Assembly (NCBI GenBank): GCA_958267355.1
Contig: OY279575.1
Location: 1,246,295 to 1,310,294 of the forward strand
Length of the DNA: 64,000 bases
Source of the DNA: an uncultured Alphaproteobacteria bacterium
GTDB taxonomy: Bacteria > Pseudomonadota > Alphaproteobacteria > JALCBB01
Direction of reading: 5' to 3'
Positions within the stretch are counted from its first letter, which is position 1. Each line of letters opens with the position of its first letter. Positions 13,585 to 53,391 of this stretch are shown piece by piece. The position numbers were made by a program, and so were the translations under genes. Below the pieces are notes generated by a model. The model was not told the DNA's origin. It made no database searches and saw only the letters and a list, made by a program, of their open reading frames with translations.

Positions 13585-14021
13585 CACCTTGCCTGAAACA
13601 AAGTCAGGGTTAGGCTCTACTTCCCCGTCTTTGTCTTACTGGTGGGTTAAGCCTTTATAGGGCTTCGTCTCAAAGTTAATCTGTGCCTTCCCCATCTTTA
13701 CAGTACCCTGATTTCTGAGCCGCAAAAAAATGGGTTGGGGTTAGGCTTTACTTCAACATTTAATTTACGCACCCTTGCGGGTGCTTTTGCTCGCGCAAGC
13801 GCGAGCGTCCGCTTCGCTACGCTCGTTTCACTCCGCTACGCTCGCGCTCGTGCGCTACGCGCACTCGGTGGGTCTTCATCTCCATAACGGGAGCCAGTTA
13901 ATCCCACTAATCTTACGCTCCCCCCGTTAGGGGCTTCGGCTCAATTAACCCGTCACTAAAACTATGGGGCTTAACAGCTGGTGGGAGCAACAAGGCCTGG
14001 CACGAATGCCCCACCGCAAGG
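13585..14021 (+). repeat. composite dispersed element (modules C+A) running from the merR stop codon to the tRNA-Pro 3' end
   Basis: related copies at 38035-38365, 34283-34620 (rc), 52145-53391 (rc/mosaic), 31167-31645, 36377-36850 and 46346-46762 (rc). Confidence 0.85.
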
Positions 14022-14098
14022 TGGTCGGAGCGGCGGGATTTGAACCCACGACCTCCTGCGCCCCATGCAGGCGCGCTACCAAGCTGCGCTACGCTCCG
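14022..14098 (-). tRNA. tRNA-Pro (GGG)
   Basis: rc gives cggagcg-ta-gcgcagcttggtagcgc-g-cctgc-aTGGGGc-gcagg-aggtc-gtgggttcaaatcccgc-cgctccg-a-CCA; cloverleaf with anticodon GGG, G37, CCA encoded. Confidence 0.85.
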
Positions 14099-14149
14099 AG
14101 AGAGGGGGAATTTTTGGGGAGGGAATTTTGGGCGAAGTATTTGGGGTGC

Positions 14150-14320
14150 GGTATTGGGGCGGGGTGGAGTTTATAGCGGGATAGCGTGGGGTGTATAGCG
14201 GGGCGGAGCGGAGTTGAGTCTATAGCGGGATAGCGTGGGGTGTATAGCGGGACGGGGTGGAGTTTATAGCGGGATGGCGTGGGGGTATAGCGGGGTGGAG
14301 TGGAGTGTATAGCCTTTGTG
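14150..14320. repeat. tandem repeat, ~44-bp unit (gcgggatagcgtggggtgtatagcggg...) ~4 copies
   Basis: direct reading. Confidence 0.8.
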
Positions 14321-14393
14321 GGTTTTCTACTAGGCGAGTTGGGGGAAGCTAGGCTGATTTGCGGTAGTGGGGGTTAGGCTTTGCGGACAGGCT

Positions 14394-15458
14394 TTAGGCT
14401 TTGCGGGCTTGGCTGAAGCCTGCAAGGTAGCTGGAAACATTTTCGCCGATATTTTCTATGTCGTATCCGCCTTCTAGTATGAAGACAGTGGGTAGGTTGA
14501 GCTGGGCGATCATACGTCCTGCTTCTAGGTAGTCTTCTTGGGTTAGGCGGAAGAAAGACAGCGGGTCGTTGTGGAAGGTATCTACACCGAGTGAGACGAC
14601 TAAGGCTTCGGCTCCGTAGTCTGTGTAGTAGCGGCAGGCTTGGTTGAGTCCTTCTTGCCACAGGTTCCATCCCGTGCCGGGCGGGTAGGGAAAGTTTAGG
14701 TTAAAGCCTTCGCCGACTCCTGAGCCGCGTTCGTCGGCGTAGCCTAGAAAGTTGGGGAAGGTGTGTTCGGGGTCTCCGTGGAGTGAAATGTAATAGACAT
14801 CTTTGCGGTCGTAGAAGATTTCCTGTGTGCCGTTGCCGTGGTGGAAGTCTACATCTAGCACGGCGACTCGTTCGGCTCCTGCGTGGATGAAGTCTTGGGC
14901 GGCGATGGCAGCGTTATTTAAGAAGCAGTATCCGCCGTATTGGTTTTTTGATGCGTGGTGACCAGGCGGACGACACAAGCCGAAGGCGGCTCCTAATCCG
15001 TTGCGTACGGCGGCGGTTGCGGTCAGGGCGGTTTGTGCCGCCCAGTAAGCCGCTTGCCAGGTGCCTTCTTGGATTGTGGTTTCGGCGGCAAGAGCGTAAT
15101 AGCCGACTCGTCCTTCTAGGTCGTGAGCGGGGGGTACGGTGCGTCCTGGCATGGAGCGCGAAGGCCAGACTGAAGGCACAACATCGTTTTTGTTGCCAGC
15201 GGCGTTCCAGGCTTGCCAGATGGTGCGTAGGAACTCCACATAGTCGGAGTCGTGTATGGCGAGAATCATCTCACTGCCGAAGTCATCAGGCTTGTGCAGG
15301 TCATCGGGCTTGCACAGGGTTCCGCCGCCGAAGGAGAGCAATCCTTCGCGGACTGCTTCGGCGCGTTGTGGGATTTCCACAGGGGCGCGGAAGCCGCCGC
15401 CAGCCAGCTCGTTGGCAGGTGCGTGCAGGGCGTGTTTTTCGGAAAAAACTGTCAGCAT
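14394..15458 (-). CDS. histone deacetylase-family amidohydrolase (AcuC/HDAC-like)
   Basis: VLDVDFHHGNGTQEIFY...YISLHGDP...FILEGGY motifs of the arginase/deacetylase fold. Confidence 0.85.
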   Translation of the reverse strand: MLTVFSEKHALHAPANELAGGGFRAPVEIPQRAEAVREGLLSFGGGTLCKPDDLHKPDDFGSEMILAIHDSDYVEFLRTIWQAWNAAGNKNDVVPSVWPSRSMPGRTVPPAHDLEGRVGYYALAAETTIQEGTWQAAYWAAQTALTATAAVRNGLGAAFGLCRPPGHHASKNQYGGYCFLNNAAIAAQDFIHAGAERVAVLDVDFHHGNGTQEIFYDRKDVYYISLHGDPEHTFPNFLGYADERGSGVGEGFNLNFPYPPGTGWNLWQEGLNQACRYYTDYGAEALVVSLGVDTFHNDPLSFFRLTQEDYLEAGRMIAQLNLPTVFILEGGYDIENIGENVSSYLAGFSQARKA

Positions 15459-15534
15459 TCTCTGATGCTTCTAGGATACCGCGTCTGTGGAGCAAAAACA
15501 AACGCGGCATCAGCGTAGTGCCAGCGTGGCGTTA

Positions 15535-15800
15535 GCGTAGTGTTAGCGTGGCTTATGCGTGGCTTATATGGCTTGTGTGTCGCTTATGTGGCTTGTGTGT
15601 GGCTTGTATGGCTTGTGCGTAGCTTATGTGGCTTGTGTGTGGCTTATATGGCTTGTGTGTGGCTTATATGGCTTGTGCGTGGCTTATATGGCTTGTGCGT
15701 AGCTTATGTGGCTTGTGCGTAGCTTATGTGGCTTGTGCGTAGCTTATATGGCTTGTGCGTGGTGTTTATGTGGTTTGTGTGTTCTGCGTGTTCTGTGTGC
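15535..15800. repeat. tandem repeat, 24-bp unit (gtggcttgtgtgtggcttatatggc) x~10
   Basis: direct reading; yields spurious LCVAY-repeat ORFs. Confidence 0.85.
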
Positions 15801-15874
15801 TCTCTTTGCTCTCTGTGCGTTATTCGCCTGCCGTTTGCGTGGCGGATACGACTGCTATACTCTGCAGCCTGCCT

Positions 15875-15947
15875 GTCCCCTTCGTCTAGAGGCCTAGGAC
15901 ACCGCCCTCTCACGGCGGCAACAGGGGTTCGAATCCCCTAGGGGACG
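15875..15947 (+). tRNA. tRNA-Glu (CTC)
   Basis: gtccccttcgtctagaggcctaggacaccgccctCTCacggcggcaacaggggttcgaatcccctaggggacg; near-identical to E. coli tRNA-Glu but with anticodon CTC. Confidence 0.85.
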
Positions 15948-15949
15948 CA

Positions 15950-16205
15950 ATACACCCTAGACGCACCTAAGCCACTCCCTAGATGCACCCTAAACGCACC
16001 TAAGCCACACCTAAGCCACACCCAAGCCACACTTTAAGCCCCACCCAAGCCACACCCAAGCCAAAGTACAAGCACTTTTTTCAAGCCTTTTTTCTGCCCC
16101 ATCTTGCTAAGCTCTAACCCTTGCTACGACTTAACCCTTGCTACGCCCTATCCTTGCTACGACTTAACTCTTGCTACAACTTAACCCTTGCTACGACTTA
16201 ACTCT
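15950..16205. repeat. two adjacent tandem repeats (cacctaagccacac units, then cccttgctacgacttaac 18-bp x5)
   Basis: direct reading. Confidence 0.8.
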
Positions 16206-17720: not shown

Positions 17721-17737
17721 TTCGGTGCCAAGCGACA

Positions 17738-17812
17738 CACCTTTAGCGAAACATCTTTAACGAAACATCTTTAACGAAACATCTTTAGCGAAGCATCTTT
17801 AACGACACGCCT
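17738..17812. repeat. tandem repeat, 16-bp unit (cgaaacatctttaa) x4
   Basis: direct reading. Confidence 0.8.
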
Positions 17813-17831
17813 TGAAGCGACAAATTTTTCT

Positions 17832-19088: not shown

Positions 19089-19090
19089 CT

Positions 19091-19567
19091 ATGACTTCTA
19101 CGACCCAAAAGCCATCGGGCAAAAAGCCTGCGCAGGAAGCCAGCCAAGACAGCGACGCGCCACCTTTCGGCGAAAGTGCGCGTTCTGTGGCGGAAGAATT
19201 TGTCGCTCGCGGAGCAGACGCACTATCAGGAGCGGCAGGTTTGTTGCAGGGTGTGGAACGTGAAAGCCGCACCCAGTTCCGCGATGTGAGTCGGCGTATG
19301 GCGCGTAGGCTTGAGCTGGTGGAAGAAGAAGAGTTTTTGGCGTTGCGCGAGCAGGTGCGAGATTTATCAAAGCGCGTGGCGGTGCTTGAGGGCAAAAAGC
19401 CCGCAAAAAAATCTACACGGAAAAAATCTACACTGAAAAAATCCACACGCAAAAAATCTACACGCAAGACTACACGCAAAAAATCTACACAAAAGAAATC
19501 CAACAAGCAGACAAGCCGCAAGAAGACAACGAAGAAAGCGAAGAAATCTTCAGCCAAAAGAAAATAA
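19091..19567 (+). CDS. UbiK/BMFP (YqiC) family accessory factor with a Lys-rich C-terminal tail
   Basis: core GLLQGVERESRTQFRDVSRRMARRLELVEEEEFLALREQVRDLSKRVAVLE resembles UbiK/BMFP coiled-coil proteins; followed by a KKSTRKKST repeat tail (~70 aa). Confidence 0.55.
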   Translation: MTSTTQKPSGKKPAQEASQDSDAPPFGESARSVAEEFVARGADALSGAAGLLQGVERESRTQFRDVSRRMARRLELVEEEEFLALREQVRDLSKRVAVLEGKKPAKKSTRKKSTLKKSTRKKSTRKTTRKKSTQKKSNKQTSRKKTTKKAKKSSAKRK

Positions 19568-19599
19568 GCCAAAAGAATCCGCCGAAGGAAAATCCGCCG

Positions 19600-20225: not shown

Positions 20226-20238
20226 GCTGAACTCCCCA

Positions 20239-26409: not shown

Positions 26410-26429
26410 TGTGCGAGTCCTTTGTGCGT

Positions 26430-26485
26430 TGGTTCTGGGTGTTGGTTCTGGGTGTTGGTTCTGGGTGTTGGTTCTGGGTTGGGTT
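26430..26485. repeat. tandem repeat, 13-bp unit (ggttctgggtgtt) x4; further GT-rich repeats to ~26660
   Basis: direct reading. Confidence 0.75.
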
Positions 26486-29302: not shown

Positions 29303-31166
29303 TATGAACGACAGTTTGACTGAGACTTTATCTCCTGACACTGAAATTGACGGCGGAGAGAAATTCGCTGACCTTTTGAAAGAACATCAAATCACGGCGA
29401 CGGACGAGAGCTTAGAAGGCTCGGTCTTGCGTGGGCGGGTTGTGGCGTTTGATGGTGATTATGTTGTTGTGGATGTGGGCTTGAAGTCCGAGGGGCGAAT
29501 TCACGCGCATGAGTTTAAGCGTGAGGGAGAGCTTGAGGGTTTGAAGAAAGACGATATTGTTGAGGTATATCTTGACCGTTTAGAAGACTCGCAGGGGATT
29601 GTTGTTTTGTCGCGTGAGAAGGCGCGGCGTGAAGAGGCGTGGGCGCGTTTGGTGGATGTATATAACGCGGGCACTCCTGTTGAGGGAATTATTCAAAATC
29701 GGGTCAAGGGGGGGTATGTTGTGGATTTGAAGGGTGCGACGGGTTTTTTGCCGTCGAGTCAGGTTGATATTCGTCCGCAATCCAACATTACGCATTTGAT
29801 GGGTTCGCCCCAGCGGTTTAAGATTCTGAAGATGGACAGGAACCGTGGCAATCTTGTGGTTTCGCGGCGTTCGGTTTTGGAAGAAGAGCGGTCTGCGATG
29901 TTAGAAGACACGATGTCGCGGATTAAGGAAGGTGAAATTTTTACGGGCATTGTTAAGAATGTTACTGAATACGGAGCCTTTGTGGATTTGGGTGGTGTTG
30001 ATGGTTTATTGCATGTGACTGACATATCGTGGCAGCGGGTGAATCACCCGTCTGAGCATTTGCGGGTTGGACAGCAGGTTACGGTACAGATTACGCGTTA
30101 CAATCCTGAGACTCATCGTTTAAGCTTGGGTATGAAGCAGCTGGAAGCGGATCCGTGGCAGGGTACGGTGGAGCGTTTTCCTGTTGGTACGAAGCTGAAG
30201 GGGCGGGTTTCTAACATTACTGATTACGGGGCTTTTGTACAGCTGGAGCCGGGCATTGAGGGTTTGGTGCATATATCGGAGATGAGCTGGTCGCAGCGTA
30301 ATGTTCATCCGCGCAAGCTGGTATCGGTGAGTCAAGAAGTGGATGTGGTGGTCTTAGACATTGATGAAAAGCGGCGGCGGGTTTCGTTGGGTATGAAGCA
30401 GGCTTTACCGAATCCGTGGAATGAATTTGCCGAGCGTCATCCGACGGGAAGCGAAGTTACGGGCAAGGTGAAGAACATAACGAACTTTGGTTTGTTTATT
30501 GAGTTGGAGGAAGGTGTTGATGGGATGGTGCATTTTGCTGACTTGTCGTGGGACAAGCCTGGCGAAGAAGTCATCAAGGAATACCACCGCGGACAACAGG
30601 TTACTGCCAAGGTGACCAATGTGGATAGTGATCGCTGTCGTATATCGTTATCCATTAAGCACTTGACGGAAGATCCGTTTGAAGACGGAGATGAAAAGCA
30701 CAAGATTGGAGCGACAGTGACCTGTACGATTTCGTCGGTCTTTAGCGGCGGCGTGGAAGTCACGCTCGGAGACGAGAAGACTCCAGGGGTTATTAAAAAA
30801 GCCGAGTTGTCGCGTGAGCGTGATGGACAAGACCCCAATCAGTTTGCGGCGGGTGAGAAGGTGGATGCGAAGATTGTTTCGCGTGATAAGAAGGCGCGGC
30901 GTTTTGTTTTGTCTATTAAGCAGTTGCAGATTGAAGAAGCCGAGCAGGCGGTGGCGGATTACGGCTCTACCGAGTCGGGAGCGCAGCTGGGCGAGATTTT
31001 GGGTGCATCCAAGCTGGCGGCTCTAGCTCCGACAGGAGACGACACCGCCAAAGCCCCCAGCGAAGCCCCTGATGAAGCTCCTGTGGCTGATGACTCCCCC
31101 GAGCCCACAGACGCGCCCACAGAGCCAACAGACGAGCCCACAGAAGCCCCCAAAGAAGCCCAGTAG
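29303..31166 (+). CDS. rpsA: 30S ribosomal protein S1 with an acidic Pro/Thr/Glu-rich C-terminal extension
   Basis: repeated S1 domains (GSVLRGRVVAFDGDYVVVDVGLKSEGRIHAHEF..., GTKLKGRVSNITDYGAFVQLEPGIEGLVHISEMSW...); start at MNDSLTE rather than the 29136 ORF start. Confidence 0.92.
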
Positions 31167-31645
31167 CCCCCTTGCGGGGGAGCATTCATGCCAAGTCTTA
31201 GGAAACCAAGCAAGGCTTGGCTTCATAGCTTCCAGCACAGGCTAATTGTGTCTAAGCACCTTGCGGTGCGGCGATAGTGCCTAGCGTTAACTCTCTAATC
31301 TGCCCACGGACTTCATAGTTTTAGCCAAGGGCTAATTGTGTCTAAGCACCTTGCGGTGCGGCGATAGTGCCTAGCGTTAACTCTCTAATCTGCCCACGGA
31401 CTTCATAGTTTTAGCCAAGGGCTAATTGTGTCTAAGCACCTTGCGGTGCGGCGATAGTGCCTAGCGTTAACTCTCTAATCTGCCCACGGGCTTCATAGTT
31501 TTAGCCAAGGGCTAATTGTATCTAAAGGTCTTGCAGGGGGCTTCGGCTCAATTAGCCCTTCATTGAAACTATGGGGCTTAACAGTTGGTGGAAGCAAAAA
31601 GGGCTGGCACGAATGCCCCGCCGCAAGGCGGGGAAACCCGCAGAA
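31167..31645 (+). repeat. dispersed element copy: A-module fragment + ~80-bp B-module x3.5 + A-module, between rpsA and ihfB
   Basis: begins one base after the rpsA stop codon; B unit cttcatagttttagccaagggctaattgtgtctaagcaccttgcggtgcggcgatagtgcctagcgttaactctctaatctgcccacgg. Confidence 0.85.
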
Positions 31646-32946: not shown

Positions 32947-34281
32947 ATGAGCGAAGCGACAAAAACAAAAGCGCCATCTAACCCCCAACGAGCCGAAGAC
33001 TTTTGCGTTAAGGACTTATCCTTAGCCGAATGGGGCAGGGCTGAGATAACCCTAGCTGAGTCTGAAATGCCGGGCTTGATGGCGTTGCGGGCGGAACACG
33101 GGGCGAGTCGTCCGCTTGCGGGAGCGCGAATTATTGGCTGTCTGCATATGACGGTGCAGACTGCGGTCTTGATAGAGACTCTGACGCACTTGGGCGCGTC
33201 TGTTCGTTGGTCGTCGTGCAATGTTTTTTCGTCTCAAGACCATGCGGCGGCGGCGGTTGCCAAGGCAGGAGTCGCCGTCTTTGCGTGGAAAGGTATGAGC
33301 GAAGATGAATACTGGCGGGCGATAGACCAGACACTGGATGCGCCTGACGGTGGCAAGCCTGACTTGATTGTTGATGATGGCGGCGACTTAACGCAGGTTT
33401 TGCATCGTCCTGAACGGGCGGACTGGCTTGCGACTGTGCGCGGCATTTCTGAAGAGACGACAACGGGAGTCCTACGTTTAGAAGAAATGGCGCGCAAGGG
33501 TACACTTGGTTGTCCTGCGATTAATGTGAATGACTCGGTTACGAAGTCTAAGTTTGACAACCGCTACGGGGTGCGTGAATCGCTAGTAGATGGAATTCGC
33601 CGAGCGACGGACTTGATGTTGTCGGGCAAGGTGGCGATGGTCTGTGGCTTTGGCGATGTGGGCAAGGGCTCGGCGGAATCTTTGGCACGAGCGGGCTGTC
33701 GGGTTTTGGTGAGTGAGATAGATCCGATTTGCGCTTTACAGGCGGCGATGCAGGGGTATGAAGTGGTGACGATGGAAACGGCGGCTCCACGGGCGGACAT
33801 TTTTGTTACTGCGACGGGCAATCGTGATGTGATAACGGTTGATCATATGCGGGCGATGAAGGATTGTGCGGTGGTGTGCAACATCGGACATTTTGACAAC
33901 GAGATTCAAGTTGAAGGTTTGCGTAATTTCCGTTGGCAGAACATTAAGCCGCAAGTGGATCAAATCACCTTTCCTGACGACAAGCGGCTTTTACTGTTGT
34001 CTGAGGGCAGACTGGTGAATTTGGGCAATGCTACGGGACATCCTTCATTTGTGATGAGCACAAGCTTTGCCAATCAAGTTTTGGCACAGCTTGACCTATG
34101 GCAGAACGGAGCGAATTACGAGCGCAAGGTATATGTATTACCCAAACACCTAGACGAAAAGGTGGCGGCTTTGCACTTACAACACTTAGGAGCAGAACTT
34201 TCCACCTTGACTGACTCGCAAGCCACCTACCTCAACCTCCCCCCCCAAGGCCCCTTCAAACCCCCCCACTACCGCTACTAA
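32947..34281 (+). CDS. ahcY: adenosylhomocysteinase
   Basis: [28 protein letters not shown]...GDVGKGSA...[10 protein letters not shown]; 444 aa. Confidence 0.95.
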
Positions 34282-34282
34282 C

Positions 34283-34620
34283 CGCCTTGCGGCGGGGCAT
34301 TCATGCCAACCCTTGTTGCTTCCACCAACCGCCCCGCCCCATAGTTTCCAGTAAAAGGTTAATTGAGCCGAAGCCCCCTACGGGGGGAGCGTAAGATTAG
34401 GGGGATTAACTGGCTCCCGTTATGGAGATGAAGACCCACCGAGTGCCCGTAGGGCACGAAACCACCCCCCCTAACTGCCAAAGCTGTCTCCTGCACCCGT
34501 GCTGGACGCACGGGGCAGTCGCCCGCTTTGGTTTCCTGTTAACACCCCCTAGAGGCGAGACGTGGCGAAGCTTGCCGAGCCGTGCAAAAAGGCGGCGCAA
34601 GCGGGCGTAATAAACAATTG
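34283..34620 (-). repeat. dispersed element copy (rc orientation: A-module + C-module variant) between ahcY and the SSADH gene
   Basis: rc matches 13800-14021 (gagccagttaatccc...ggcttcggctcaatta...aactatgggg); begins 2 nt after the ahcY stop. Confidence 0.85.
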
Positions 34621-36376: not shown

Positions 36377-36850
36377 GCTCCGCCGCCGCCCCGCCAGGCG
36401 GCTTTTTTAATTGACGCCAAGGTGCTTTGGCTCAATTAGCCCTTCCGTTGAAACTATGGGGCTTAACGGCTGGTGGGGGAGCTAAGGGCTGGCACAGATG
36501 CCCCGCCGCAAGGTGCTTGGCTCAATTAGCCTGTTAGCAAAACTATGGGGCTTAACAGTTGGTGGGGGAGCTAAGGGCTGGCATGAATGCCGCACCGCAA
36601 GGTGCTTGGCTTCATAGCTTCCAGCACAGGCTAATTGTGTCTAAGCACCTTGCGGTGCGGCGATAGTGCCTAGCGTTAACTCTCTAATCTGCCCACGGGC
36701 TTCATAGTTTTAGCCAAGGGCTAATTGTGTCTAAAGGTCTTATAGGGGGCTTCGGCTCAATTGGCCTGTTAGCAAAACTATGGGGCTTAACGGCTGGTGG
36801 GAGAGTTAAGGGCTGGCACGAATGCTCCACCGCAAGGTGCCGGTGGTGAA
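36377..36850 (+). repeat. cluster of dispersed-element modules (A x3, B x2)
   Basis: ggcttcggctcaatt...aactatggggcttaacggctggtgg...ggctggcacgaatgc...caccgcaaggtg reiterated; the last ~45 bp overlap the 3' end of the TPR ORF on the opposite strand. Confidence 0.85.
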
Positions 36851-37903
36851 GTGTTTCCAGGCGATGCGGATGAAGCGCCAGGCGGCGGTGAGGTAACTTT
36901 TCTCCTCGTAGGACAAGATTGCCAAGCCGACATAGATGCGTATTTGTCCTGCTTTGTCTTCCATGGATTGGTAGAGCGTCAAGGATTGGTTGTACCACTC
37001 TTCGGCGCTCCCGAAGTCGCCGCGTTTGACGGAAATATTACCGAGATGGTTATAGACCGTTGCGAGTCCGATTTGTTGTTCTTGGTCGTTGACGGACTCG
37101 TATTGCTCAATTGCGCGGTCGTAGAAGGAAATGGCACGCGACCACTCGCGGCGGATTTGCGCAATCTCGCCAAGATGGCTGTAGCTGGAGGCTAATCCGA
37201 GGCGATTGTTTAGGTCTTCGCTCAGTGCTAGGGCTTGTTCGTAGAAGCTATGGGCTTCGTTTAGGTCCTTGTTGATCTGTCCTTGGCTGCCGAATTTTCT
37301 GTAAATTTTGGCGGCTCCGTCTGCACCGCCAATGATATCTTTGCTGGCGAGGTATCCGTAGAAGTAGCGCGAGATTTTGCCGATGGCGTTTTGCACGCCG
37401 CGGGCGACGGCGACATATCCGAGGGCATTGTAGGTGTGGATGAGTCCTGCTGTATCGCCCAGCGACTCGCGGACGGTGAGCGATTGTTTGTACCAGTCGC
37501 TCGCGGATTCAAAATCGCCGCGCAGTTGGGCGATGTTGCCGAGGTTATGGTAGGTGTCGGCGACTCCGTGTTGGTCTCCGAGGTGTTTGCGGGTAGCGAG
37601 CGAGTCGTTGTAGTAGGTTTCGGCTTTGTCTAGGTCTCCTTTATTGGCGGCGAGTGCTCCGAGATTATTGTAGGTGGCGGCGCGGATGCGCAAGTTTTCT
37701 TCGTCCTGCAGGAGTTCTAAGATTTGCAGGTAGCTATCGCGAGCTTTGTTTGGCTTGTTCTCCTCGCGGAATTCGCGGGCGGCTTGGAACAGCTCGTCTA
37801 TGGTTTGCGGCTTCTCCTGCGCCTGTGCTGGACTTGCCAACACAAGTCCTGTGCTTAGAAGCAAACAGAAAAACGAACAAGCGATCTTTTGGACGCGGTG
37901 CAT
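36806..37903 (-). CDS. secreted TPR-repeat protein
   Basis: signal peptide MHRVQKIACSFFCLLLSTGLVLASPAQA; ~7 TPR units (YNNLGALAANKGDLDKAETYY...); the C-terminal ~15 codons are encoded by the repeat element. Confidence 0.65.
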   Translation of the reverse strand: MHRVQKIACSFFCLLLSTGLVLASPAQAQEKPQTIDELFQAAREFREENKPNKARDSYLQILELLQDEENLRIRAATYNNLGALAANKGDLDKAETYYNDSLATRKHLGDQHGVADTYHNLGNIAQLRGDFESASDWYKQSLTVRESLGDTAGLIHTYNALGYVAVARGVQNAIGKISRYFYGYLASKDIIGGADGAAKIYRKFGSQGQINKDLNEAHSFYEQALALSEDLNNRLGLASSYSHLGEIAQIRREWSRAISFYDRAIEQYESVNDQEQQIGLATVYNHLGNISVKRGDFGSAEEWYNQSLTLYQSMEDKAGQIRIYVGLAILSYEEKSYLTAAWRFIRIAWKHFTTGTLRWSIRASP

Positions 37904-38034
37904 ACTTCCCCCGCTTTGTACTCTCCATCAAGAGCGGCAATTATACCACAACCCTAAGTATACATAAATCCTATAAAAATTCCCCCCCGCGGCTTCATCA
38001 CCCCCGCTCTTGCGGGCAATTTGCCACATCTGGC

Positions 38035-38365
38035 TTGTCTTCCAATTACCCTGATTTCTAAGCCGCAGAAAAAGAGGTTAGGCTTGGGCTCTACTTCAAC
38101 ATTTAATTTACGCCCGCTTGCGCGGGCTCTTGCCGCCTACGGCGGCGTCCGCTTCGCTCCGCTCGTTTCACTCCGCTACGCTCGCGCTCGTGCCCTACGG
38201 GCACTCGGTGGGTCTTCGTCTCCACAATAGGAGCCAGATCATCACACTAACCTCACGCTCCCCCCGCAAGGGGGCTTCGGCTCAATTGGCCTGTTAGCAA
38301 AACTATGGGGCTTAACAGCTGGTGGAAGCAACAAGGCTTGGCACGAATGCCGCACCGCAAGGTGC
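38035..38365 (+). repeat. dispersed element copy (C+A modules) between the TPR gene and etfA
   Basis: near-colinear with 13700-14021; ends (…caccgcaaggtg) 2 nt before the etfA stop codon on the opposite strand. Confidence 0.85.
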
Positions 38366-41491: not shown

Positions 41492-42503
41492 CACTGGCAA
41501 GTCTAGCGACTCGCGCGGGCTTTCGCTAGGGGGCAGGACTGCGCCCAACCGTGCCGATGCCGTTCTGTGGCTCATCGGCACGCCGATCGGCAACTTGGGC
41601 GACTTGACCTTGCGGGCACGGGAAGCCTTGCGCTCTGCCGATGCGCTTGCCGCCGAGGATACACGGCGTATCCGCAAGCTTTTGTCGGCGGAAGCGATTG
41701 CGACTCCGCGTCAATGTTTTTCCTATCGGGCGGAAAATGAAGCCCGCGCCAGCCAGCGCATTCTTGGACTTCTAAGCACAGGACAAAAAGTCGCGCTCGT
41801 CAGTGATGCAGGTATGCCCGCCATCAGCGACCCTGGAGCGGTGGCAGTCCGTGAAGCCCTTGCTGCGGGGTTTCGCGTTGAAGTGATACCCGGAGTCAGT
41901 GCTGTGACTACGGCGGTGGCTTTGTCGGGGTTTGGCGGTAAGGGTTTTGTTTTTACGGGCTTTGCTCCACATCGCAAGGCGCGGATTGCGCGTATGCTGG
42001 CTCCGTATCAAGACTTTGCAGGAGCGATTGTGGTTTTTGAAAGTCCGCGTAGGTTGGGGCGTATGCTTGCAGTTGCCGCTGAAACTTTGGGCGGAAATCG
42101 CTCTGCCTTAGTGGCTTTTGAAATGACAAAGTTGCACGAGCGGGTATGGCGGGGGACTTTAGATGAACTTGCGGTGCGGGCGGTTGCGGCGCAAGCGAAT
42201 TTGCAAGCGGCGGGAAGCAACAAGGGAAAAAGCACAGAAAAAAACAAGGAAAGAAACAAGAAAAGAAGCAAGGAAAGCAACAAGGAAAAAAACAAAGAAA
42301 AAAACAAAACTAGGAGTCAGAGCATAAGTGCGGCAAAAGACCAGACGCAACGCGGGCAGGACAAACCAAAAGCAGAAAGCACAGGCGAAGCACTGCCTGA
42401 TGATTTTCCTTCTAATGACTTGCCTTCTGATGACTTGCCTTTGGGAGAGGCGACTCTGGTGATTGCTCCTGCACCGAAACCAGAACCAGACGAAGAAGAT
42501 TAG
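41454..42503 (+). CDS. rsmI: 16S rRNA (cytidine1402-2'-O)-methyltransferase RsmI with a Lys/Asn/Glu-rich C-terminal extension
   Basis: LWLIGTPIGNLGDLTLRAREAL...ALVSDAGMPAISDPG...VIPGVSAV; start uncertain (no ATG close to the motif; 41454 or a non-ATG start); tail KSTEKNKERNKKRSKESNKEKNKEKNK... Confidence 0.8.
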   Translation: MDTPSKTKRTKAITGKSSDSRGLSLGGRTAPNRADAVLWLIGTPIGNLGDLTLRAREALRSADALAAEDTRRIRKLLSAEAIATPRQCFSYRAENEARASQRILGLLSTGQKVALVSDAGMPAISDPGAVAVREALAAGFRVEVIPGVSAVTTAVALSGFGGKGFVFTGFAPHRKARIARMLAPYQDFAGAIVVFESPRRLGRMLAVAAETLGGNRSALVAFEMTKLHERVWRGTLDELAVRAVAAQANLQAAGSNKGKSTEKNKERNKKRSKESNKEKNKEKNKTRSQSISAAKDQTQRGQDKPKAESTGEALPDDFPSNDLPSDDLPLGEATLVIAPAPKPEPDEED

Positions 42504-42504
42504 C

Positions 42505-42575
42505 TTTTACTGCCAACTCAGAAGATTAGCTTTTACTGCCAACTCAGAAGATTAGCTTTTACTCTTCTTGCCAAT
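42505..42575. repeat. tandem repeat, 26-bp unit (ccaactcagaagattagcttttactg) x3
   Basis: direct reading. Confidence 0.8.
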
Positions 42576-43754: not shown

Positions 43755-43915
43755 GGTTTTTTGGCTTGTTGTTTTTTAGCTTGTTATTTTTAGGTTTGGA
43801 GTTTTTGGGCTTAGTGTTTTTGGGCTTGGAGTTTTTGGGCTTGATGTTTTTGGGCTTAGTGTTTTTGGGCTTAGTGTTTTTGGGTTTAGTGTTTTCAAGC
43901 TTGGTGCGTATAAGT
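43755..43915. repeat. tandem repeat, 15-bp unit (gtttttgggcttagt) x~10
   Basis: direct reading. Confidence 0.85.
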
Positions 43916-44799: not shown

Positions 44800-44990
44800 C
44801 TTTGCTGTTGCTTTGTAAGTTGCCTTGCTGTTGCTCTGTACATTGCTTTGGCTCTGTACATTGCTTTAGCTCTGTATATTGCTTTGGCTCTGTACATTGC
44901 TTTAGCTCTGTATATTGCTTTGGCTCTGTAGATTGCTTTGGCTCTGTATATTGCTTTGCAGTTGCTTGCTACTGGGAGTCATAGTCTTAT
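44800..44990. repeat. tandem repeat, 18-bp unit (gctctgtacattgctttg) x~10
   Basis: direct reading. Confidence 0.85.
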
Positions 44991-45913: not shown

Positions 45914-46345
45914 ATGGCTTTTCGGCGAATCTTGTGGCTTGCGGTGCTGGTGCTGGTGGCGGTTTCTGTTGCCGAGCGGCGGGCGGGTTTTGTTTCTGGG
46001 TCTGTGGAAGGGCAGAGTCTGCAGGCGGCTTGGGCACAGACTGCGACGATTGCGACCACTGACTTTTTGTCTATTCTGCCTGAAATTCCTTTGCCCGCAG
46101 GTTTTGTGGAGTACACAGAAGAAGCGATTGTCTTTGACAAGCCCGCTGGACGAATTGCTGAAGCGGCGGCGTTTGGTGCGACTGATGCGGAAGTGGTGCG
46201 GCAATTCTACGCTGACACCTTGCCTTCGCTTGGCTGGCAGGAGTCGGGTGAGCTGATGTGGTTGCGCGACAGCGAAGAGCTTAGATTAGAAATTCTTGCT
46301 GAAGAAGCGGCGACACAGGTGCGTTTTTTTCTCCGCCCGCACTAG
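45914..46345 (+). CDS. hypothetical secreted protein
   Basis: signal-peptide-like N-terminus MAFRRILWLAVLVLVAVSVA; no recognisable family; 143 aa. Confidence 0.4.
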   Translation: MAFRRILWLAVLVLVAVSVAERRAGFVSGSVEGQSLQAAWAQTATIATTDFLSILPEIPLPAGFVEYTEEAIVFDKPAGRIAEAAAFGATDAEVVRQFYADTLPSLGWQESGELMWLRDSEELRLEILAEEAATQVRFFLRPH

Positions 46346-46762
46346 CACCTTGCGGTGGCACCTTGCGGTGCGGCATTCGTGCCAAGCCTTGGCTCTTCCA
46401 CCAGCCGTTAAGCCCCATAGTTTCAATAAGGGGTTAATTGAGCCAAAGCCCCCTGCAAGACCTTTAGACACAATTAGCCTGTGCTGAAAGCTATGAAGCC
46501 AAGCCTTGCTTGGTTTCCTAACACTTGGCATGAATGCTCCCCCGCAAGGGGGCTTGCGGTGCGGCATCAATGCCAGGCGTTAACCCTCTAATCTGCTTAA
46601 AAGCCCCATAGTTTCAAACATAGGCTACTTGTGTTTAAGCACCTTACAGGGGGCTAGACAAAATTAGCCTGTCCCTAAAACTATGAAGCCAAACCTTGCT
46701 TGGTTTCCTAACACTTGGCATGAATGCTCCCCCGCAAGGGGGCTTGCGGGGGTGCATCGGTG
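46346..46762 (-). repeat. cluster of dispersed-element modules in rc orientation (A x3, B x2); inverted partner of 36377-36850
   Basis: rc of 46441-46505 matches 36600-36760; begins right after the 45914..46345 stop and ends at the stop of the cold-shock gene. Confidence 0.85.
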
Positions 46763-47589: not shown

Positions 47590-47730
47590 AAGGGGGCGCG
47601 GTGTAAGTTCAATGGGGCAAGTGTGGCACTGCGGACTTGTTTTGGCAAGGGGGAGATAAAGGGGGAGCTATACGGGGAGATGAAGGGGCAGGTGAAGGGG
47701 GGGATAAAGGGCAGATGAAAGGGGGAGATA
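47590..47730. repeat. G-run-rich tandem repeat (ggggagataaagg units) upstream of ileS
   Basis: direct reading; six or more G3-G7 runs on the + strand. Confidence 0.7.
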
Positions 47731-47919
47731 AAAGGCGGAGCCAATTGACGAGCCAATTTTGTGCTCTGGCGTGGTGGTGGGGGGAGCGATTTTGTGATTT
47801 TGTCTATCTTTGCGCTTTTTGGCTCTTGTCTATCTTTGCTTTTGGCTTTTACCTTGTCTAATTGTCTATGAATTGTCTAATTGTGCCTGCGTGGCGGATC
47901 GCGTTTCGGTTCTAATTTT

Positions 47920-50886: not shown

Positions 50887-50904
50887 TCTTGCTATAATTG
50901 GCGT

Positions 50905-51501
50905 ATGCGAAGGTTTCGTTATATCTGTGCGCTGGTGTTTGGGCTGGCGTTGGTGCCGAGCTTGGCGGGCTGTGAGGACACACGCCGTGCTGTTGGCTTG
51001 GGTGTTCGTGATGCGCCTGATGAATTTGCGGTGGTGCGGAATGATCCGCTGGTGGTGCCAGAGGGCTTGGAGCAGGCGGCGATTTTGCCGACTCCGCGGG
51101 CGGCGAATCCGAACTTGCCGTTGTTGTCTGACGCGGTGGATGATGCTGAACGGGCGTTATTTGGCGCACCGATTACGAACGCCAGCAACGCCAGCAACGC
51201 GAGCAATGGTACGGCGGCGGCGGCGGGTGAAGTGGCGCGTTCGCCTGTGGAGCATTTTTTGCTAGAAGGAGCGGGAGCGGGTACGGGCAATCGTGATATT
51301 CGGGCGATTTTGGCGAATGAAGCTCCTGATACGGGCACGACATTGGGCGAGCGGATTTTGTTTTGGCAGGAGCGGGCGCAGGGTTTGGTTCTTGACCCTG
51401 AGGCGGAGCAGGCGCGGATACAGTCCTTGCGCGAGCGTGGTGAGGCGATTAATGGTGATGGAGTGCCGGTATTGCTTGACCAGCAGAATAATTTGTTTTG
51501 A
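50905..51501 (+). CDS. DUF3035-like lipoprotein (possible BamF-like) with a NASNASNAS repeat
   Basis: lipobox LAGC; Pro-rich conserved N-terminal domain DAPDEFAVVRNDPLVVPE; position after ileS. Confidence 0.5.
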   Translation: MRRFRYICALVFGLALVPSLAGCEDTRRAVGLGVRDAPDEFAVVRNDPLVVPEGLEQAAILPTPRAANPNLPLLSDAVDDAERALFGAPITNASNASNASNGTAAAAGEVARSPVEHFLLEGAGAGTGNRDIRAILANEAPDTGTTLGERILFWQERAQGLVLDPEAEQARIQSLRERGEAINGDGVPVLLDQQNNLF

Positions 51502-51504
51502 TGT

Positions 51505-51600
51505 GATTCTTGCGAATGTAGTGCGAATGTAATTGTGAGCGTGTAATTGCGAGTGTAATTGTAAGTGTGATTGCGAGTGTAATTGCGAGTGTGTAATTGT
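51505..51600. repeat. tandem repeat, 13-bp unit (gtgtaattgcgagt) x7
   Basis: direct reading. Confidence 0.85.
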
Positions 51601-52144
51601 GAGTGTAATTGTGTTTAGATTTTTGCGTAGCTGTTCGCCTATGCGTACCCGTTCGTCTATGGGTAGCTGTTCGTCTATGCGTGTCTGGGCGATGATGGCT
51701 TCTGTGGTTTCTGTGGTTTTGGTTGTGGGTTTGGCGGGTTTGTGGGCTGATGCGGTGGCGGAAGATTTATTTCGTTATGGTCGTGGTTTTGTGGAGACGG
51801 ATGATGGGGTGCGGTATTTGTTTTCGTTGGAGGTAGCGGAGACAGCGGAAGCGCGGGCGCGTGGTTTGATGTTTCGCGAGTCGTTGGGTGCGGAGAGTGG
51901 AATGTTATTGGTTTGGCAGGAGTCGCGTGATGTGGGTATTTGGATGAAGAACACGCCCTTGTCGCTTGATTTGTTGTATATCCGTGATGATGGAGTTGTG
52001 GTTCGGGTTTATGAGCGTGCGAAGCCGTTTGACTTGACGATCTTGCATAGCGGCGAACCTGTGCGCTCGGTCTTGGAGCTTCCTGCTGGCACGGTATCCC
52101 GCCTTGGCATAACCCCAGGCGCCCACTTTCGTCTATTGGATTGA
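51599..52144 (+). CDS. DUF192 domain protein (COG1430)
   Basis: FSLEVAETAEARARGLMFRESLGAESGMLLVW...SLDLLYIRDDGVV...LELPAG are DUF192 motifs; start ambiguous among several in-frame ATGs. Confidence 0.65.
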   Translation: MSVIVFRFLRSCSPMRTRSSMGSCSSMRVWAMMASVVSVVLVVGLAGLWADAVAEDLFRYGRGFVETDDGVRYLFSLEVAETAEARARGLMFRESLGAESGMLLVWQESRDVGIWMKNTPLSLDLLYIRDDGVVVRVYERAKPFDLTILHSGEPVRSVLELPAGTVSRLGITPGAHFRLLD

Positions 52145-53391
52145 ATACTGAGACGAAGCTTGGGAGAAGTAGCGGCTTGCCCTTTCCCAACCTTAGAGAC
52201 GAAGACCCACCGAGTGGCGTAGCCACGAGCGCGAGCGGAGTGGAGCGTTAGCGAACGGAGCGAAGCGGACGCCGTGAAGCGTCTTGCGCGTAGCGCACCG
52301 CTTCACGGCACTAGGCGGCGTAAGCCGCCGTAACTTAAACAGTAAGAGAAAGACTAGCCCTGACCTTTTCTTTTACGGACTAGGAATTAGGGTTCTGTAA
52401 AGACGGGGAAGGCGCGACTTGCCCTTTCCTACCTTTGAGACGAAGACCCACCGAGTGGCGTAGCCACGAGCGCGAGCGGAGTGGAGCGTTAGCGAACGGA
52501 GCGAAGCGGACGCCGTGAAGCGTCTTGCGCGTAGCGCACCGCTTCACGGCACTAGGCGGCGTAAGCCGCCGTAACTTAAACAGTAAGAGAAAGACTAGCC
52601 CTGACCTTTTCTTTTACGGACTAGGAATTAGGGTTCTGTAAAGACGGGGAAGGCGCGTCTTGCCCTTTCCTACCTTTGAGACGAAGACCCACCGAGTGCC
52701 CCGCGTGGCGAAGCTTGCCGAGCCACGCCAACGCGTCCGTTAGGACGCACAAAAAAGAGGCACGAGCGCGAGCGTAGCGGGCACCTTGCGGTGCGTCCGC
52801 CTTGCGGCGGGGCATTCGTGCCAAATGTTATACCCCCACCAGCCGTTAAGCCCCATAGTTTCAATGGGGGGGCTAATTGAGCCGAAGCCCCATTGAGTGT
52901 CTACAGGGCGAATTTATTTTTTACCCTTTTATTTTTTCTCTCTAACAGGGGGATATTAATAATTTACCCCCCTAGGGGCGCGAGTGAGCGTAGCGAACGA
53001 GCGGGCAAAGGGGGGTCAAGCTCACAAGCCCGTAGGGCGTAGTGAGCTTGGGGGGGATGGGTGGGAACGCGCCACAAGGGTGCGTAAATTAAATGTTGAA
53101 GTAGAGCCTAACCCCAACCCATTTTTCTACGGCTCAGAAATCAGGGTAATTAGAAGACAGGGAAAAGGCACAGCCCAACCTTAGAGACGAAGACGGGGGA
53201 TACGCGGCTTGCCCCGCAGGGCTTGCCCTGCGGGGTTCGCGCGAATTTAGCGCGAACCGCGGGAGCGTAAGGGTGGTGGGACTGCCCACAGGCGCAGGTG
53301 GTCTTGCGTCTCGCGCCCTTTAGGGCGCGGGTAGCAAGCCAGATGCGCCCAAAGCACGCGCAAGCGTGCGTAAAAACTCTCCACCGCAAGG
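52145..53391 (-). repeat. amplified array of dispersed-element modules (C module ~240 bp x~2.5 in rc, A module rc, further C-like segments) from the DUF192 stop to the tRNA-Pro(TGG) 3' end
   Basis: 52200-52440 and 52440-52680 near-identical; 52800-52890 is rc of the A module; ends …ccaccgcaaggtg abutting the tRNA. Confidence 0.85.

Follow-up and report, generated by a model that had tools for sequence, protein, structure and literature searches.

Hairpin-bounded modules form a dispersed family of mosaic repeats in intergenic spacers of an uncultured alphaproteobacterium

Seven repeat loci and their modules

Self-BLAST of the whole 64,000-nt stretch analysed here (the window), with local tandem hits ignored, detected non-local similarity at 13663-14099, 31165-31631, 34281-34459, 36415-36841, 38036-38365 and 46345-46744 and in four blocks within 52196-53192. 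These are the seven loci named in the original prediction, and no dispersed repeats were found in the window beyond them. In the first block, the last 11 nt and the tRNA-Pro gene match a second tRNA-Pro gene. A separate repeat search of the window returned the same families (D3, D6, D7, D12, I1-I25). The loci occupy 5.8% of the window and all lie within 40 kb, with no copies in the ~18 kb flanking the window; about 82 kb (window and flanks) of the 1.86 Mb genome was read. The same arrays are present on independently assembled contigs of several strains and are thus not assembly artefacts.

The loci are homologous, and their hairpin-bounded non-coding modules were confirmed to form one modular dispersed family, as had been proposed. 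One nhmmer model of a ~93-nt unit, designated U, found 18 copies on both strands of the window, with the subtypes A, B1 (including B1') and B2 (Table 1). The signature of module A, GGCTCAATT-N12-AAACTATGGGGC, occurred six times, with none expected from 100 shuffles of the window. All motif strings originally given for modules A, B and C were recovered. The B module, however, proved not to be separate; it is a diverged module A unit in the opposite orientation (~60-70% identical), repeated with a period of 90 nt at 31240-31525 (3.2 copies, 98%, Tandem Repeats Finder). The predicted size of ~240 bp for module C agreed with the 241-nt period of its two tandem copies at locus 7 (52172-52698, 2.2 copies, 98% identity, Tandem Repeats Finder). 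Copies of module C measure ~221-241 nt, and in that of locus 1 linear conserved segments alternate with three variable GC hairpins. The repeats predicted at locus 7 were confirmed, but the scheme of modules A, B and C had missed a fourth, module D (about 53180-53391), a hairpin-rich segment adjoining tRNA genes. Two stretches were removed from the predicted repeats: 36377-36414 belongs to the upstream DUF465 gene as its intrinsic terminator, and 34460-34620 has no homologue inside the window. No coding capacity was found in the repeat modules.

Table 1 Repeat modules and adjoining tRNA genes at the seven loci
Locus	Feature	Position	Strand	Evidence
1	Degenerate C-like pieces	13600-13674
1	Module C, full copy	13675..13884	+	nhmmer C model positions 2-221, alignment
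1	U, subtype A	13930..14023	+	nhmmer
1	tRNA-Pro(GGG)	14022-14098	-
2	U, subtype B2, left end of composite B2 - B1(n) - A	31170..31260	-	nhmmer
2	Three tandem U, subtype B1/B1' (31258-31350, 31348-31440, 31438-31525)	31258..31525	-	nhmmer, tandem repeats
2	U, subtype A	31537..31629	+	nhmmer
3	U, subtype A	34284..34377	-	nhmmer
3	C-to-U linker (as elsewhere) and module C 3' fragment (34423-34459)	34378..34459	-
4	Two tandem U, subtype A (36421-36514, 36514-36603)	36421..36603	+	nhmmer
4	Half B2 (36600-36649), then B1' (36647-36734)	36600..36734	-	nhmmer
4	U, subtype A	36746..36838	+	nhmmer
5	Module C, full copy	38015..38224	+	nhmmer C model
5	U, subtype A	38271..38364	+	nhmmer
6	Array of units 46649-46741 (+), 46553-46643 (-), 46464-46551 (+), 46359-46452 (-)	46359..46741	-	nhmmer
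7	Two tandem full module C (52194-52424, 52435-52665)	52194..52665	-
7	Module C 3' part, directly 3' of U on the element's strand	52676..52798	-
7	U, subtype A	52799..52891	-	nhmmer
7	Module C, model positions 2-204	52981..53179	-	nhmmer C model
7	Module D, adjoining the tRNA-Pro(TGG) 3' end	53180..53391	-
7	tRNA-Pro(TGG)	53392-53468	-

Hairpin joints and placement at gene ends

The modules meet at hairpins that are short and GC-rich, for the most part C(N)CC-GCAA-GG(N)G, with stems of 5-7 bp and loops rich in GCAA, UUCG and UACG; the seven loci contain 21 of the window's 25 GCAA/TTGC-loop hairpins. G+C is higher at these delimiters and lower within the units. Compensatory changes were seen at stem positions, which prove neither function nor neutrality, since template switching could produce them through palindrome self-correction. 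Taken alone, U is no palindrome (z = -1.85). Hairpins of ~190 nt (-77 to -108 kcal/mol, z = -5.7) are formed by inverted U pairs, with arms that are only ~62-66% Watson-Crick complementary; the head-to-head A and B1' units of locus 2 are one such pair (-90.9 kcal/mol, z -5.7).

The arrays sit at gene 3' ends, occupying 5/12 convergent, 2/36 co-directional and 0/12 divergent spacers of the window (Fisher p = 0.0024). At locus 1 the 3' hairpin of U, CCACC-GCAA-GGTGG, overlaps the CCA end that the tRNA-Pro(GGG) gene encodes. The B2 unit of locus 2 begins at the hairpin CCCCC-TTGC-GGGGG directly past the rpsA stop codon (31164-31166), and U of locus 3 has its hairpin CCGCC-TTGC-GGCGG directly after the AdoHcyase stop codon. 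The tandem A units of locus 4 lie downstream of the DUF465 terminator (36385-36402), and U of locus 5 ends 2 nt ahead of the etfA stop codon. Locus 6, ordered B2(inverted) - B1-like - B2(inverted) - A on the minus strand, takes up the whole spacer that separates the CSD gene from a 143-aa gene, reaching from one stop codon to the other.

Loop composition could indicate functional RNA modules in 3' UTRs (stabilisers, RNase barriers or terminators) with hairpins selected for stable GNRA/UNCG tetraloops, and many REPs are thought to be RNA elements downstream of genes (PMC3733652). The A-forward strand also gave more stable minimum-free-energy folds, with more G-U pairs. Yet this asymmetry fits the plus-strand G+T skew, and alignment-based counts of wobble versus A-C mismatches (10:5, 12:4, 8:10, 9:8) gave no significant strand bias. 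We consider the RNA explanation very unlikely, as U occurs in either orientation with respect to the gene upstream of it, the upstream genes at loci 3 and 4 have their own canonical terminators ahead of the array, most hairpins have no T tract, and array content varies between close strains. Whether Rfam lists the family had been left open in the original prediction, and no match was found there even at E = 10, which also speaks against an RNA function.

The composite B2(inverted) - B1(n) - A of loci 2 and 6, and partly of locus 4, has the same outer ends and could be read as a classical MITE, a deletion derivative of a DDE insertion sequence in which B2 and A would be imperfect terminal inverted repeats of ~90 nt enclosing a variable B1 core. 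Its small size and lack of coding capacity would suit such an element, and BOX, with a similar A-B(n)-C layout, has been linked to an IS via its terminal repeats (PMC3049150). Nevertheless, a MITE origin is highly improbable: no target-site duplication was found at comparable ends, including the composite flanks at loci 2 and 6, the element is GC-rich rather than AT-rich, single U units and C-U blocks occur without a partner repeat, and no IS is among the gene calls of the regions read. Consistent with the original statement that the window encodes no transposase, no called gene in the ~82 kb read, or in the corresponding regions of relatives, matched a transposase family.

Variation between strains and sister lineages

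We compared the loci with at least four close genomes from the same sample (~97-98% identical). Every syntenic genome has repeats at the same six of the seven loci, and a gene cassette stands in for the remaining one, locus 5, in one strain. Arrays differ between close strains in copy number, inversion, deletion, module gain, loss or swap, and gene-cassette insertion. Locus 2 holds 2-5 B1 copies across strains (in the window, units 1 and 2 are 100% identical and each is 94% identical to unit 3), locus 4 has 1 versus 4.5 units, and one B1 unit is inverted at locus 6. In strain s103 the entire C-U block of locus 1 is inverted, with a breakpoint at the GCACC-TTGC-GGTGC hairpin; strain s347 lacks module C of locus 5, the site being marked by an 8-9-nt direct repeat, (T)CCCCCCGC. 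Strains also differ in whether they have an eighth locus, ~300 nt long, beside tRNA-Arg, of which the window keeps only the half-hairpin GCAAGGCGG. The same array boundaries are insertion points of TPR/NYN gene cassettes, and module D also flanks tRNA-Pro(GGG) and tRNA-Arg in other strains. Clear presence/absence differences number only two among these genomes, and each can be read as a deletion.

Local array dynamics are shown by this comparison. The breakpoints appear to fall at the hairpins, but since the shared sequence is the hairpin itself, they cannot be assigned to an exact base; the same junctions would be expected from homologous recombination, from template switching and from site-specific cleavage. 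A copies are 73-90% identical, and the B1' unit of locus 4 is 99% identical to the locus 2 unit at 31438-31525, 5 kb away, which suggests some exchange between loci.

U is absent from two sister lineages (~72-89% nucleotide identity in genes), which have other repeats in the same spacers. One of them, s29, has module D and tandem terminator-like 'TTTACG-hairpin-TTTT' units. The U family therefore seems to be young and lineage-specific, and its positions would be hot spots. Strain-variable, unrelated tandem repeats also occur in many spacers and some coding regions of this lineage.

Such tandem repeats, the different repeats of the sister lineages and the confinement of all seven loci to 40 kb would be expected if the family were not mobile, being a by-product of general tandem-repeat instability spread only via segmental duplication or gene conversion between nearby spacers. 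This is quite unlikely, as the family occurs in either orientation in seven or eight distinct spacers whose flanks are unrelated, and subtypes including the near-identical B1' are common to several loci. Some inter-locus transfer is needed, because pure local slippage cannot give subtypes shared across loci.

Known repeat systems and a candidate mechanism

REPINs typically measure roughly 70-110 nt. Under a REPIN-like origin, a HUH tyrosine transposase present in single copy (RAYT or IS200/IS605-type TnpA) would move the elements in trans; its gene would lie outside the window, and the enzyme would recognise hairpins in single-stranded DNA and insert the elements without target duplication. 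The long hairpins of inverted U doublets, the missing target-site duplications, the compensatory stem changes, the gene 3'-end placement and the near-identical B1' copies at two loci agree with it, and REPs resemble IS200/605 subterminal hairpins while RAYTs are usually single-copy (PMC3333891, PMC3116915). REPINs of Pseudomonas and Enterobacteria likewise form long hairpins from inverted doublets, occur also as singletons, and are intergenic and vertically inherited (PMC3116915, PMC3337134). However, the doublet here is ~190 nt with imperfect arms, and stems of 5-7 bp in a 93-nt unit stand against a 20-40-nt palindrome (PMC3733652). A GTAG or CGTC tag was found on only 4 of 57 hairpins, the level expected by chance, and no Y1 transposase or RAYT was seen in the ~82 kb or in the relatives' matching regions. 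Only two presence/absence differences were clear among the close genomes, each readable as a deletion, and we regard the REPIN-like origin as unlikely. The transposition of MITE or REP type put forward in the original prediction was not shown, given no target-site duplication, tags at chance level and loci that stay occupied across strains; nor do the sequences demonstrate that the family is a MITE.

CGTC-tagged REPs, the REP superfamily typical of Alphaproteobacteria, which includes Rickettsia RPE-4/6 and Neisseria dRS3, share the host class, common head-to-head dimers, the lack of a known dedicated transposase and placement between convergent and unidirectional genes (PMC3733652). In contrast, the repeats here lack the CGTC head that defines these REPs, as well as their CCA tail and their stem of 8-9 bp that opens with A-T pairs.

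The loci are probably a lineage-specific family of intergenic mosaic repeats of the same class as NIME, BIME and BOX, with arrays changed by recombination at hairpins. The family is new in that no match was found in Rfam, GTDB species representatives, JGI metagenomes, IMG/VR, plasmids or phages, while the class of mosaic intergenic repeats is already known. In NIME arrays, short inverted repeats surround 50-150-bp units at syntenic positions in variable number (PMC1797815). Both systems have short palindromes delimiting 50-200-nt units of several sequence families, stacked in arrays whose positions are syntenic between genomes and whose repeat number, length and content differ (PMC1797815); both also show G+C rising at delimiters and falling in units, and an association with variable neighbouring genes. 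Nonetheless, the two are unrelated in sequence. Units here are delimited by a C(N)CC-GCAA-GG(N)G hairpin of 12-14 nt instead of by dRS3 (ATTCCC-N8-GGGAAT), unit families number three or four against >100, the host belongs to the Alphaproteobacteria and has a genome of 1.86 Mb, neighbours are housekeeping genes rather than surface antigens, and no counterpart of a dRS3-targeting phage or recombinase was found in the sequence read. Enterobacterial BIMEs (REP Y/Z and linkers) are likewise extragenic mosaics of palindromic motifs at gene 3' ends, with distinct subtypes, alternating orientation and variable tandem copy number (PMC3333891), but the 93-nt unit here is itself not palindromic and has neither GTAG tag nor a RAYT in the sequence read. 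BOX of Streptococcus pneumoniae (boxA - boxB(n) - boxC) has partly complementary end modules, variable tandem internal modules, strain-variable copy number and a predicted long stem-loop (PMC3049150), with B2 - B1(n) - A as the counterpart here. It differs in its unrelated sequence and host; in the present family a single unit has diverged into both the end and the internal modules, and C and D modules are additional.

In this mosaic family, modules U, C and D are joined via the GC-rich palindromic hairpins, which would supply direct and inverted microhomology because a near-identical small palindrome stands at every module end. Replication slippage, template switching or recombination between hairpins could then produce tandem duplication, deletion, inversion and module exchange, and the hairpins may serve as entry points for strain-specific gene cassettes. 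Arrays would accumulate where spacers tolerate insertions, mainly between convergent genes and at tRNA 3' ends. The enzymes at work could be those of the host's replication and recombination, or there could be a dedicated one, a hairpin-specific recombinase or HUH nuclease, whose gene lies elsewhere; no recombinase was identified in the sequence read. The original spread to 7-8 loci presumably involved some inter-locus transfer or gene conversion. By analogy with proposals for REP/BIME, the elements may have a host-level role in mRNA 3' protection or in binding a nucleoid protein or gyrase. Most likely they are selfish or neutral DNA for which terminator-like hairpins at the ends of genes were the seed, with side effects on genes rather than a dedicated RNA function. 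The TPR protein may owe its new C-terminus to such an effect: the reverse strand of the subtype A unit at 36746..36838 (locus 4) encodes the protein's final 11 residues (GTLRWSIRASP) and supplies the stop codon of its gene (36806-37903, minus strand).

Modules and hairpin joints of the repeat family

Self-BLAST of the window, with local tandem matches ignored, recovered dispersed similarity at the seven loci for which the original prediction had proposed a repeat family and at no others (see the table), and a repeat search for direct and inverted families agreed with this result. The seven loci total 3,723 nt (5.8% of the window). The module A signature, GGCTCAATT-N12-AAACTATGGGGC, occurred six times in the window and in none of 100 shuffles. 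The repeat family in the window is confirmed.

An nhmmer model trained on the A copies detected 18 copies, on both strands, of one unit of ~93 nt, which we designated U. Alignment of the copies in one orientation separated three subtypes, A (GGGGCTTCGGCTCAATT...GGGGCTTAAC), B1 (GGTGCTTAGACACAATT...GCAGATTAGAGAGTTAAC) and B2 (...GAAGCCAAGC-CTTGCTTGGTTTCC...). The module B described earlier as a separate element is real as sequence but corresponds to subtype B1 on the opposite strand, with ~60-70% identity to A. The sole structure common to all U units lies at the 3' end, where it makes up the last ~26 nt, and is a small GGC...GCC hairpin followed by a (C/G)C(A/G/C)CC-GCAA-GG(T/C/G)G(G/C) hairpin, which showed compensatory changes at two stem positions. 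Every unit opens with the 3' half of a GCAA-type hairpin, so that adjacent units share one hairpin. Two further modules belong to the family: C, of ~221-241 nt, consists of well-conserved linear segments broken by three GC hairpins, whose positions are constant between copies while their stem sequences are almost entirely different, and D adjoins tRNA genes.

The window contains 25 perfect hairpins whose loop is GCAA or TTGC, and 21 of them fell inside the seven loci, indicating that this hairpin is a property of the family and not a general terminator of the genome. The stems of 57 hairpins were G-C throughout and 5-7 bp long, apart from two of 10 bp. In quasi-palindrome mutagenesis, template-switch correction inside a palindrome can keep stems perfect while they change fast; hence, the compensatory stem changes are not proof of selection.

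The fold of a single U was not more stable than that of shuffled sequences (z = -1.85). Head-to-head B-A doublets, with spacers of ~11 nt, form hairpins of ~190 nt (-77 to -108 kcal/mol; z = -5.7 for the doublet at locus 2), and their arms are ~62-66% Watson-Crick complementary. With respect to strand-specific selection on an RNA, minimum-free-energy folds favoured the A-forward strand; this bias tracked the G+T-rich plus strand, and alignment-based counts of wobble pairs versus A-C mismatches between the arms (10:5, 12:4, 8:10 and 9:8) were in no case significant. An RNA-level reading of the U units is not supported. By eye, no IHF, CtrA or GANTC motif was conserved in U and C, and no sigma-70-like promoter site was found within module C.

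Repeat loci and other features in window coordinates unless a contig is named, with their state in the close strains s103, s104 and s347
Feature	Coordinates	Self-BLAST blocks	State in the window	State in close strains
Locus 1	13585-14021	13663-14099		whole C-U block inverted in s103, left junction exactly at the GCACC-TTGC-GGTGC hairpin after the MerR stop codon
Locus 2	31167-31645	31165-31631		B1 copy number 2, 3, 4 or 5 between strains
Locus 3	34283-34620	34281-34459		s347: far larger array and one additional TPR gene (681 aa); a C hairpin is where homology with the window breaks off
Locus 4	36377-36850	36415-36841	A-A-half B2-B1-A	same in s347; single A unit in s103 and s104
Locus 5	38035-38365	38036-38365	C present	C present in s103; absent in s347, whose corresponding site shows an 8-9-nt direct repeat, (T)CCCCCCGC; s104 has a 3.4-kb cassette (two TPR proteins, one NYN-domain protein) instead of C and U
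Locus 6	46346-46762	46345-46744		five arrangements between identical flanks; B1 unit inverted in s347 relative to the others
Locus 7	52145-53391	four within 52196-53192		
Eighth locus			half-hairpin GCAAGGCGG alone	same in s103; ~300 nt of degenerate U and inverted D, from NDUFS4-like stop codon to tRNA-Arg, in s347 and s104
90-nt tandem array (Tandem Repeats Finder)	31240-31525		copies 98% identical	
241-nt tandem array (Tandem Repeats Finder)	52172-52698		copies 98% identical	
Module D	~53180-53391			
Hairpins after tRNA-Pro genes	14011-14024, 53381-53394			
U unit overlapping TPR gene	36746-36838			
TPR gene (minus)	36806-37903		U-encoded part 36806-36838	
81-aa ORF (minus)	46286-46531			
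GroEL / MT-A70 convergent spacer	2804-2931			
Strain-specific cassettes	L090:11400-14840; L089:6278-8323; L088:4261-7116, 10257-13545			exactly at repeat loci, equivalents of window loci 3-5
Tandem units downstream of DUF465 in s29	L112:12930-13080			
Spacer tandem repeats, examples	363-583, 4282-4412, 6763-6906, 15549-15762, 17733-17805, 26428-26479, 42494-42563, 43756-43906, 44825-44958, 61726-61889			
20-nt spacer repeat	15549-15762			
HemN-like ORF	58096-59622		in-frame repeat 58997-59203	
EndoIII gene	start 63111		coding repeat 63125-63508, in its 5' part	

Placement at gene 3' ends and turnover between strains

Based on the gene calls attached to the contig, the arrays were present in 5 of the 12 spacers between convergent genes, in 2 of the 36 between co-directional genes and in none of the 12 between divergent genes (Fisher p = 0.0024). 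They extend from stop codon to stop codon, or up to the 3' end of a tRNA, and their neighbours are housekeeping genes (rpsA, ahcY, etfA and tRNAs). tRNA genes adjoin three of the eight repeat loci, and a CCACC-TTGC-GGTGG hairpin that contains the genomically encoded CCA follows both tRNA-Pro genes (GGG and TGG). Derivation of the units from tRNA was rejected, as neither ARAGORN nor the Rfam tRNA model called any U unit. A reading of the hairpins as intrinsic terminators was rejected on two grounds: most of the hairpins carry no T tract, and at loci 3 and 4 the canonical terminator of the upstream gene precedes the array. One U unit forms the 3' end of a TPR gene, contributing its final 11 codons and its stop codon; the product ends in ...HFTTGTLRWSIRASP in the window versus a shorter ...HFTTA in a strain whose array differs. 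The public contig's gene caller also placed an 81-aa ORF almost wholly within the locus 6 array; this ORF is almost certainly spurious. The repeat arrays, like the many other tandem repeats, give rise to false gene calls.

The window comes from a circular 1.86 Mb contig (hifiasm.ptg000096c) of ENA sample ERZ19433661, with window position 1 at record position 1251373. Its gene content is alphaproteobacterial (GroES/EL, NDUFS4-like, ETF, ETF-QO, S1 and AdoHcyase), and the coding fraction is ~81%. The closest AdoHcyase among 185,579 species representatives was merely 72-75% identical, indicating that no close relative is catalogued. GroEL, L32, DUF465 and the NDUFS4-like protein of the window are identically encoded on other contigs of the sample, among them circular s103 (1.87 Mb), circular s104 (1.90 Mb) and the 884-kb contig s347, which match the window at ~97-98% identity across the blocks that align in the GroEL region. 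The long-read metagenome ERZ19433661 holds at least three circular genomes (1.86-1.90 Mb) in one species-level cluster plus two sister lineages of ~1.84 Mb, and the protein clusters of the lineage, drawn from ENA and NCBI, have members from this sample alone.

Six of the seven loci were filled in every syntenic genome, the exception being locus 5, which holds a gene cassette in s104; locus 4 was missing from two rearranged fragments. The strains differ by fast duplication, deletion, inversion and swapping of modules, with junctions at hairpins. Orthologous copies are ~97-100% identical between strains (by eye), whereas identity between copies from different loci is mostly 60-90%, which argues that the positions are old relative to strain divergence and that their content turns over fast. 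The exception is B1', a form of B1, with 99% identity between its units at locus 2 and locus 4, indicating that some sequence moves or converts between loci.

Strain-specific cassettes lie exactly at repeat loci. Their products are TPR_12-type paralogues, an NYN-domain protein (match to PADLOC HEC-09) and a 560-aa protein (match to HEC-07), and the cassettes are possibly defence islands for which the arrays would serve as hot spots of integration or recombination. The convergent spacer between GroEL and MT-A70 contains a ~2.1-kb restriction-modification pair (an NgoFVII-type endonuclease and a cytosine methylase) in s347 and s104, and two other genes, one of them methyltransferase-like, in s103; the window genome has neither set.

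The two sister lineages from the same metagenome, s29 and s61 (~1.84 Mb each), show 65-89% nucleotide identity to the window in their genes. No U unit was found in either at E <= 1, while s29 has module D and some C-like pieces. The s29 counterpart of the locus 6 spacer contains unrelated tandem repeats of 9-19 nt, and the tRNA-Pro spacer of s61 contains a different repeat of ~120 nt; since the sister spacers carry other repeats, the loci are permissive hot spots with fast-replaced contents. From these comparisons, the expansion of U followed the split from the s29 and s61 lineages, which dates the family. Downstream of DUF465, s29 has a tandem run of five to six ~24-nt units of the form TTTTTTACG-hairpin(TTGC loop)-CTTTTTT. 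Their appearance is that of bidirectional terminators stacked on one another, with a resemblance to hairpin 1 of module C, and such units may be the raw material of the repeat family.

Relation to known repeats and candidate mechanism

Database searches returned no known counterpart. In Rfam, only four tRNAs reached the gathering score, and no hit overlapped the loci at E <= 5 (whole window) or E <= 10 (locus 1). The U signature had no match in GTDB species representatives, JGI metagenomes or IMG/VR, nor the module C signature in JGI metagenomes. BLAST found nothing for locus 4 against plasmids or for locus 1 against phages, and the nhmmer U model found nothing beyond this organism in 80 alphaproteobacterial AdoHcyase loci (~1.4 Mb).

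The interpretation of the family as a MITE- or REP-like transposon is only partly supported. In its favour, U units are arranged at loci 2 and 6, and partially at locus 4, as a composite B2(inverted)-B1(n, inverted)-A with outer ends in common and terminal inverted repeats, GCCCCCTTGCGGGGGAGCATTCATGCCAAG and CTTGGCACGAATGCCGCACCGCAAGGTGC, as in a MITE, and the B-A doublets are inverted copies that form one long hairpin across a short spacer, as in a REPIN. However, comparison of the sequences flanking the composite at loci 2 and 6 revealed no target-site duplication; deletion accounts equally well for the single direct repeat detected, that around C at locus 5. At ~93 nt, U is too long for a REP unit, which requires an imperfect palindrome of 20-40 nt. 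The two REP superfamilies are defined by an unpaired GTAG or CGTC, respectively, at one end of the stem-loop, and the CGTC type, typical of Alphaproteobacteria, has a stem of 8-9 bp that opens with A-T pairs, plus a CCA tail (Di Nocera et al. 2013, PMC3733652). Such a tag lay within 6 nt in 4 of the 57 hairpins, which is chance level, and the stems are shorter.

The earlier statement that the window encodes no transposase stood, as no transposase family matched any called gene across ~82 kb. The same held for the matching regions of relatives and for the strain-specific genes at the loci, whose products are TPR, NYN-domain (PADLOC HEC-09), HEC-07-like and methyltransferase-like proteins. No RAYT-type Y1_Tnp was matched in the ~82 kb read of the 1.86 Mb genome, and no parent IS with matching termini was present within the regions read. 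Integron attC sites lie 3' of promoterless cassette genes, with an integrase nearby, and have R''/R' core sites of RYYYAAC / GTTRRRY. One U copy, and one alone, has CTTAAC...GTTAAG as read from the alignment; the neighbours are housekeeping genes and no integrase was found, and attC sites were rejected.

In architecture and behaviour, this family fits the intergenic mosaic repeats, its most likely explanation, and the Neisseria NIMEs are its closest description. NIMEs are units of 50-150 bp of many families, flanked by short inverted repeats, in arrays that are stable in position and variable in repeat number and length (PMC1797815). Here too, short inverted-repeat delimiters bound units of several families (U, C and D) stacked in arrays, and the syntenic arrays differ between genomes in repeat number and content. 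The Neisseria delimiter dRS3 is ATTCCC-N8-GGGAAT, whereas that of the present family is C(N)CC-GCAA-GG(N)G, such that the architecture is alike and the family is not. Alternating orientation and variable internal copy number are further shared with BIMEs (PMC3333891) and BOX elements (PMC3049150). According to the 2007 NIME paper, mosaic arrays had not been observed outside Neisseria (PMC1797815). We conclude that the family is a new, sequence-unrelated intergenic mosaic repeat, uncatalogued, of an already known class.

With regard to mechanism, the shared palindromic hairpins could, in either orientation, supply microhomology on which replication slippage, template switching or recombination would act. 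The family might have been seeded from terminator-like hairpins, and its spread between loci would require gene conversion or an unseen enzyme. There is a modest probability that behind the family stands a dedicated recombination system specific for its hairpins. In its full form, which we consider unlikely, the GCAA hairpins would be the sites of a putative Piv/IS110-like or HUH-type enzyme encoded elsewhere, which inverts, duplicates and exchanges modules and captures cassettes (TPR paralogues, NYN nuclease) at gene 3' ends. If so, it would be the alphaproteobacterial counterpart of the specific recombinase for which, as for recombination in general, NIMEs were proposed and never shown to be substrates (PMC1797815), and the co-occurring strains would offer a natural population in which to study it.

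The family is unsurprising in principle, yet it provides a natural series of unusual clarity for the origin and change of mosaic arrays. To our knowledge, detailed descriptions of mosaic intergenic arrays are limited to a few genera, and this is a clear, sequence-unrelated example from an uncultured small-genome alphaproteobacterium. With several strains of ~97-98% identity and two sister lineages in one long-read metagenome, array evolution can be traced stepwise through copy-number change, inversion, module gain and loss, cassette capture and replacement of a protein C-terminus. This serves the open questions of how such repeats originate from terminator-like hairpins and whether a dedicated enzyme is needed.

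Tandem-repeat instability elsewhere in the lineage

Many intergenic spacers hold unrelated tandem repeats of their own, with periods of 11-60 nt (69 Tandem Repeats Finder rows in 64 kb), and both sister lineages have the same habit with different sequences. Across four co-occurring strains, the 20-nt spacer repeat numbers 11, 7, 6 and 10 copies. Since many spacers and several genes carry strain-variable tandem repeats, slippage-type instability appears to be general in the lineage, and this fits the local dynamics of the arrays; arrays and tandem repeats alike are good strain markers.

In coding sequence, the HemN-like radical SAM protein has an in-frame repeat of the 10 residues SAHGRTTIET, with seven copies in the window, two in s347 and six in s104. 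The in-frame repeat in the gene of the EndoIII homologue encodes a lysine-rich, HC2-like N-terminal tail of strain-dependent length (300-350 aa for the protein in total). The malic enzyme encoded immediately outside the window also matches HC2.
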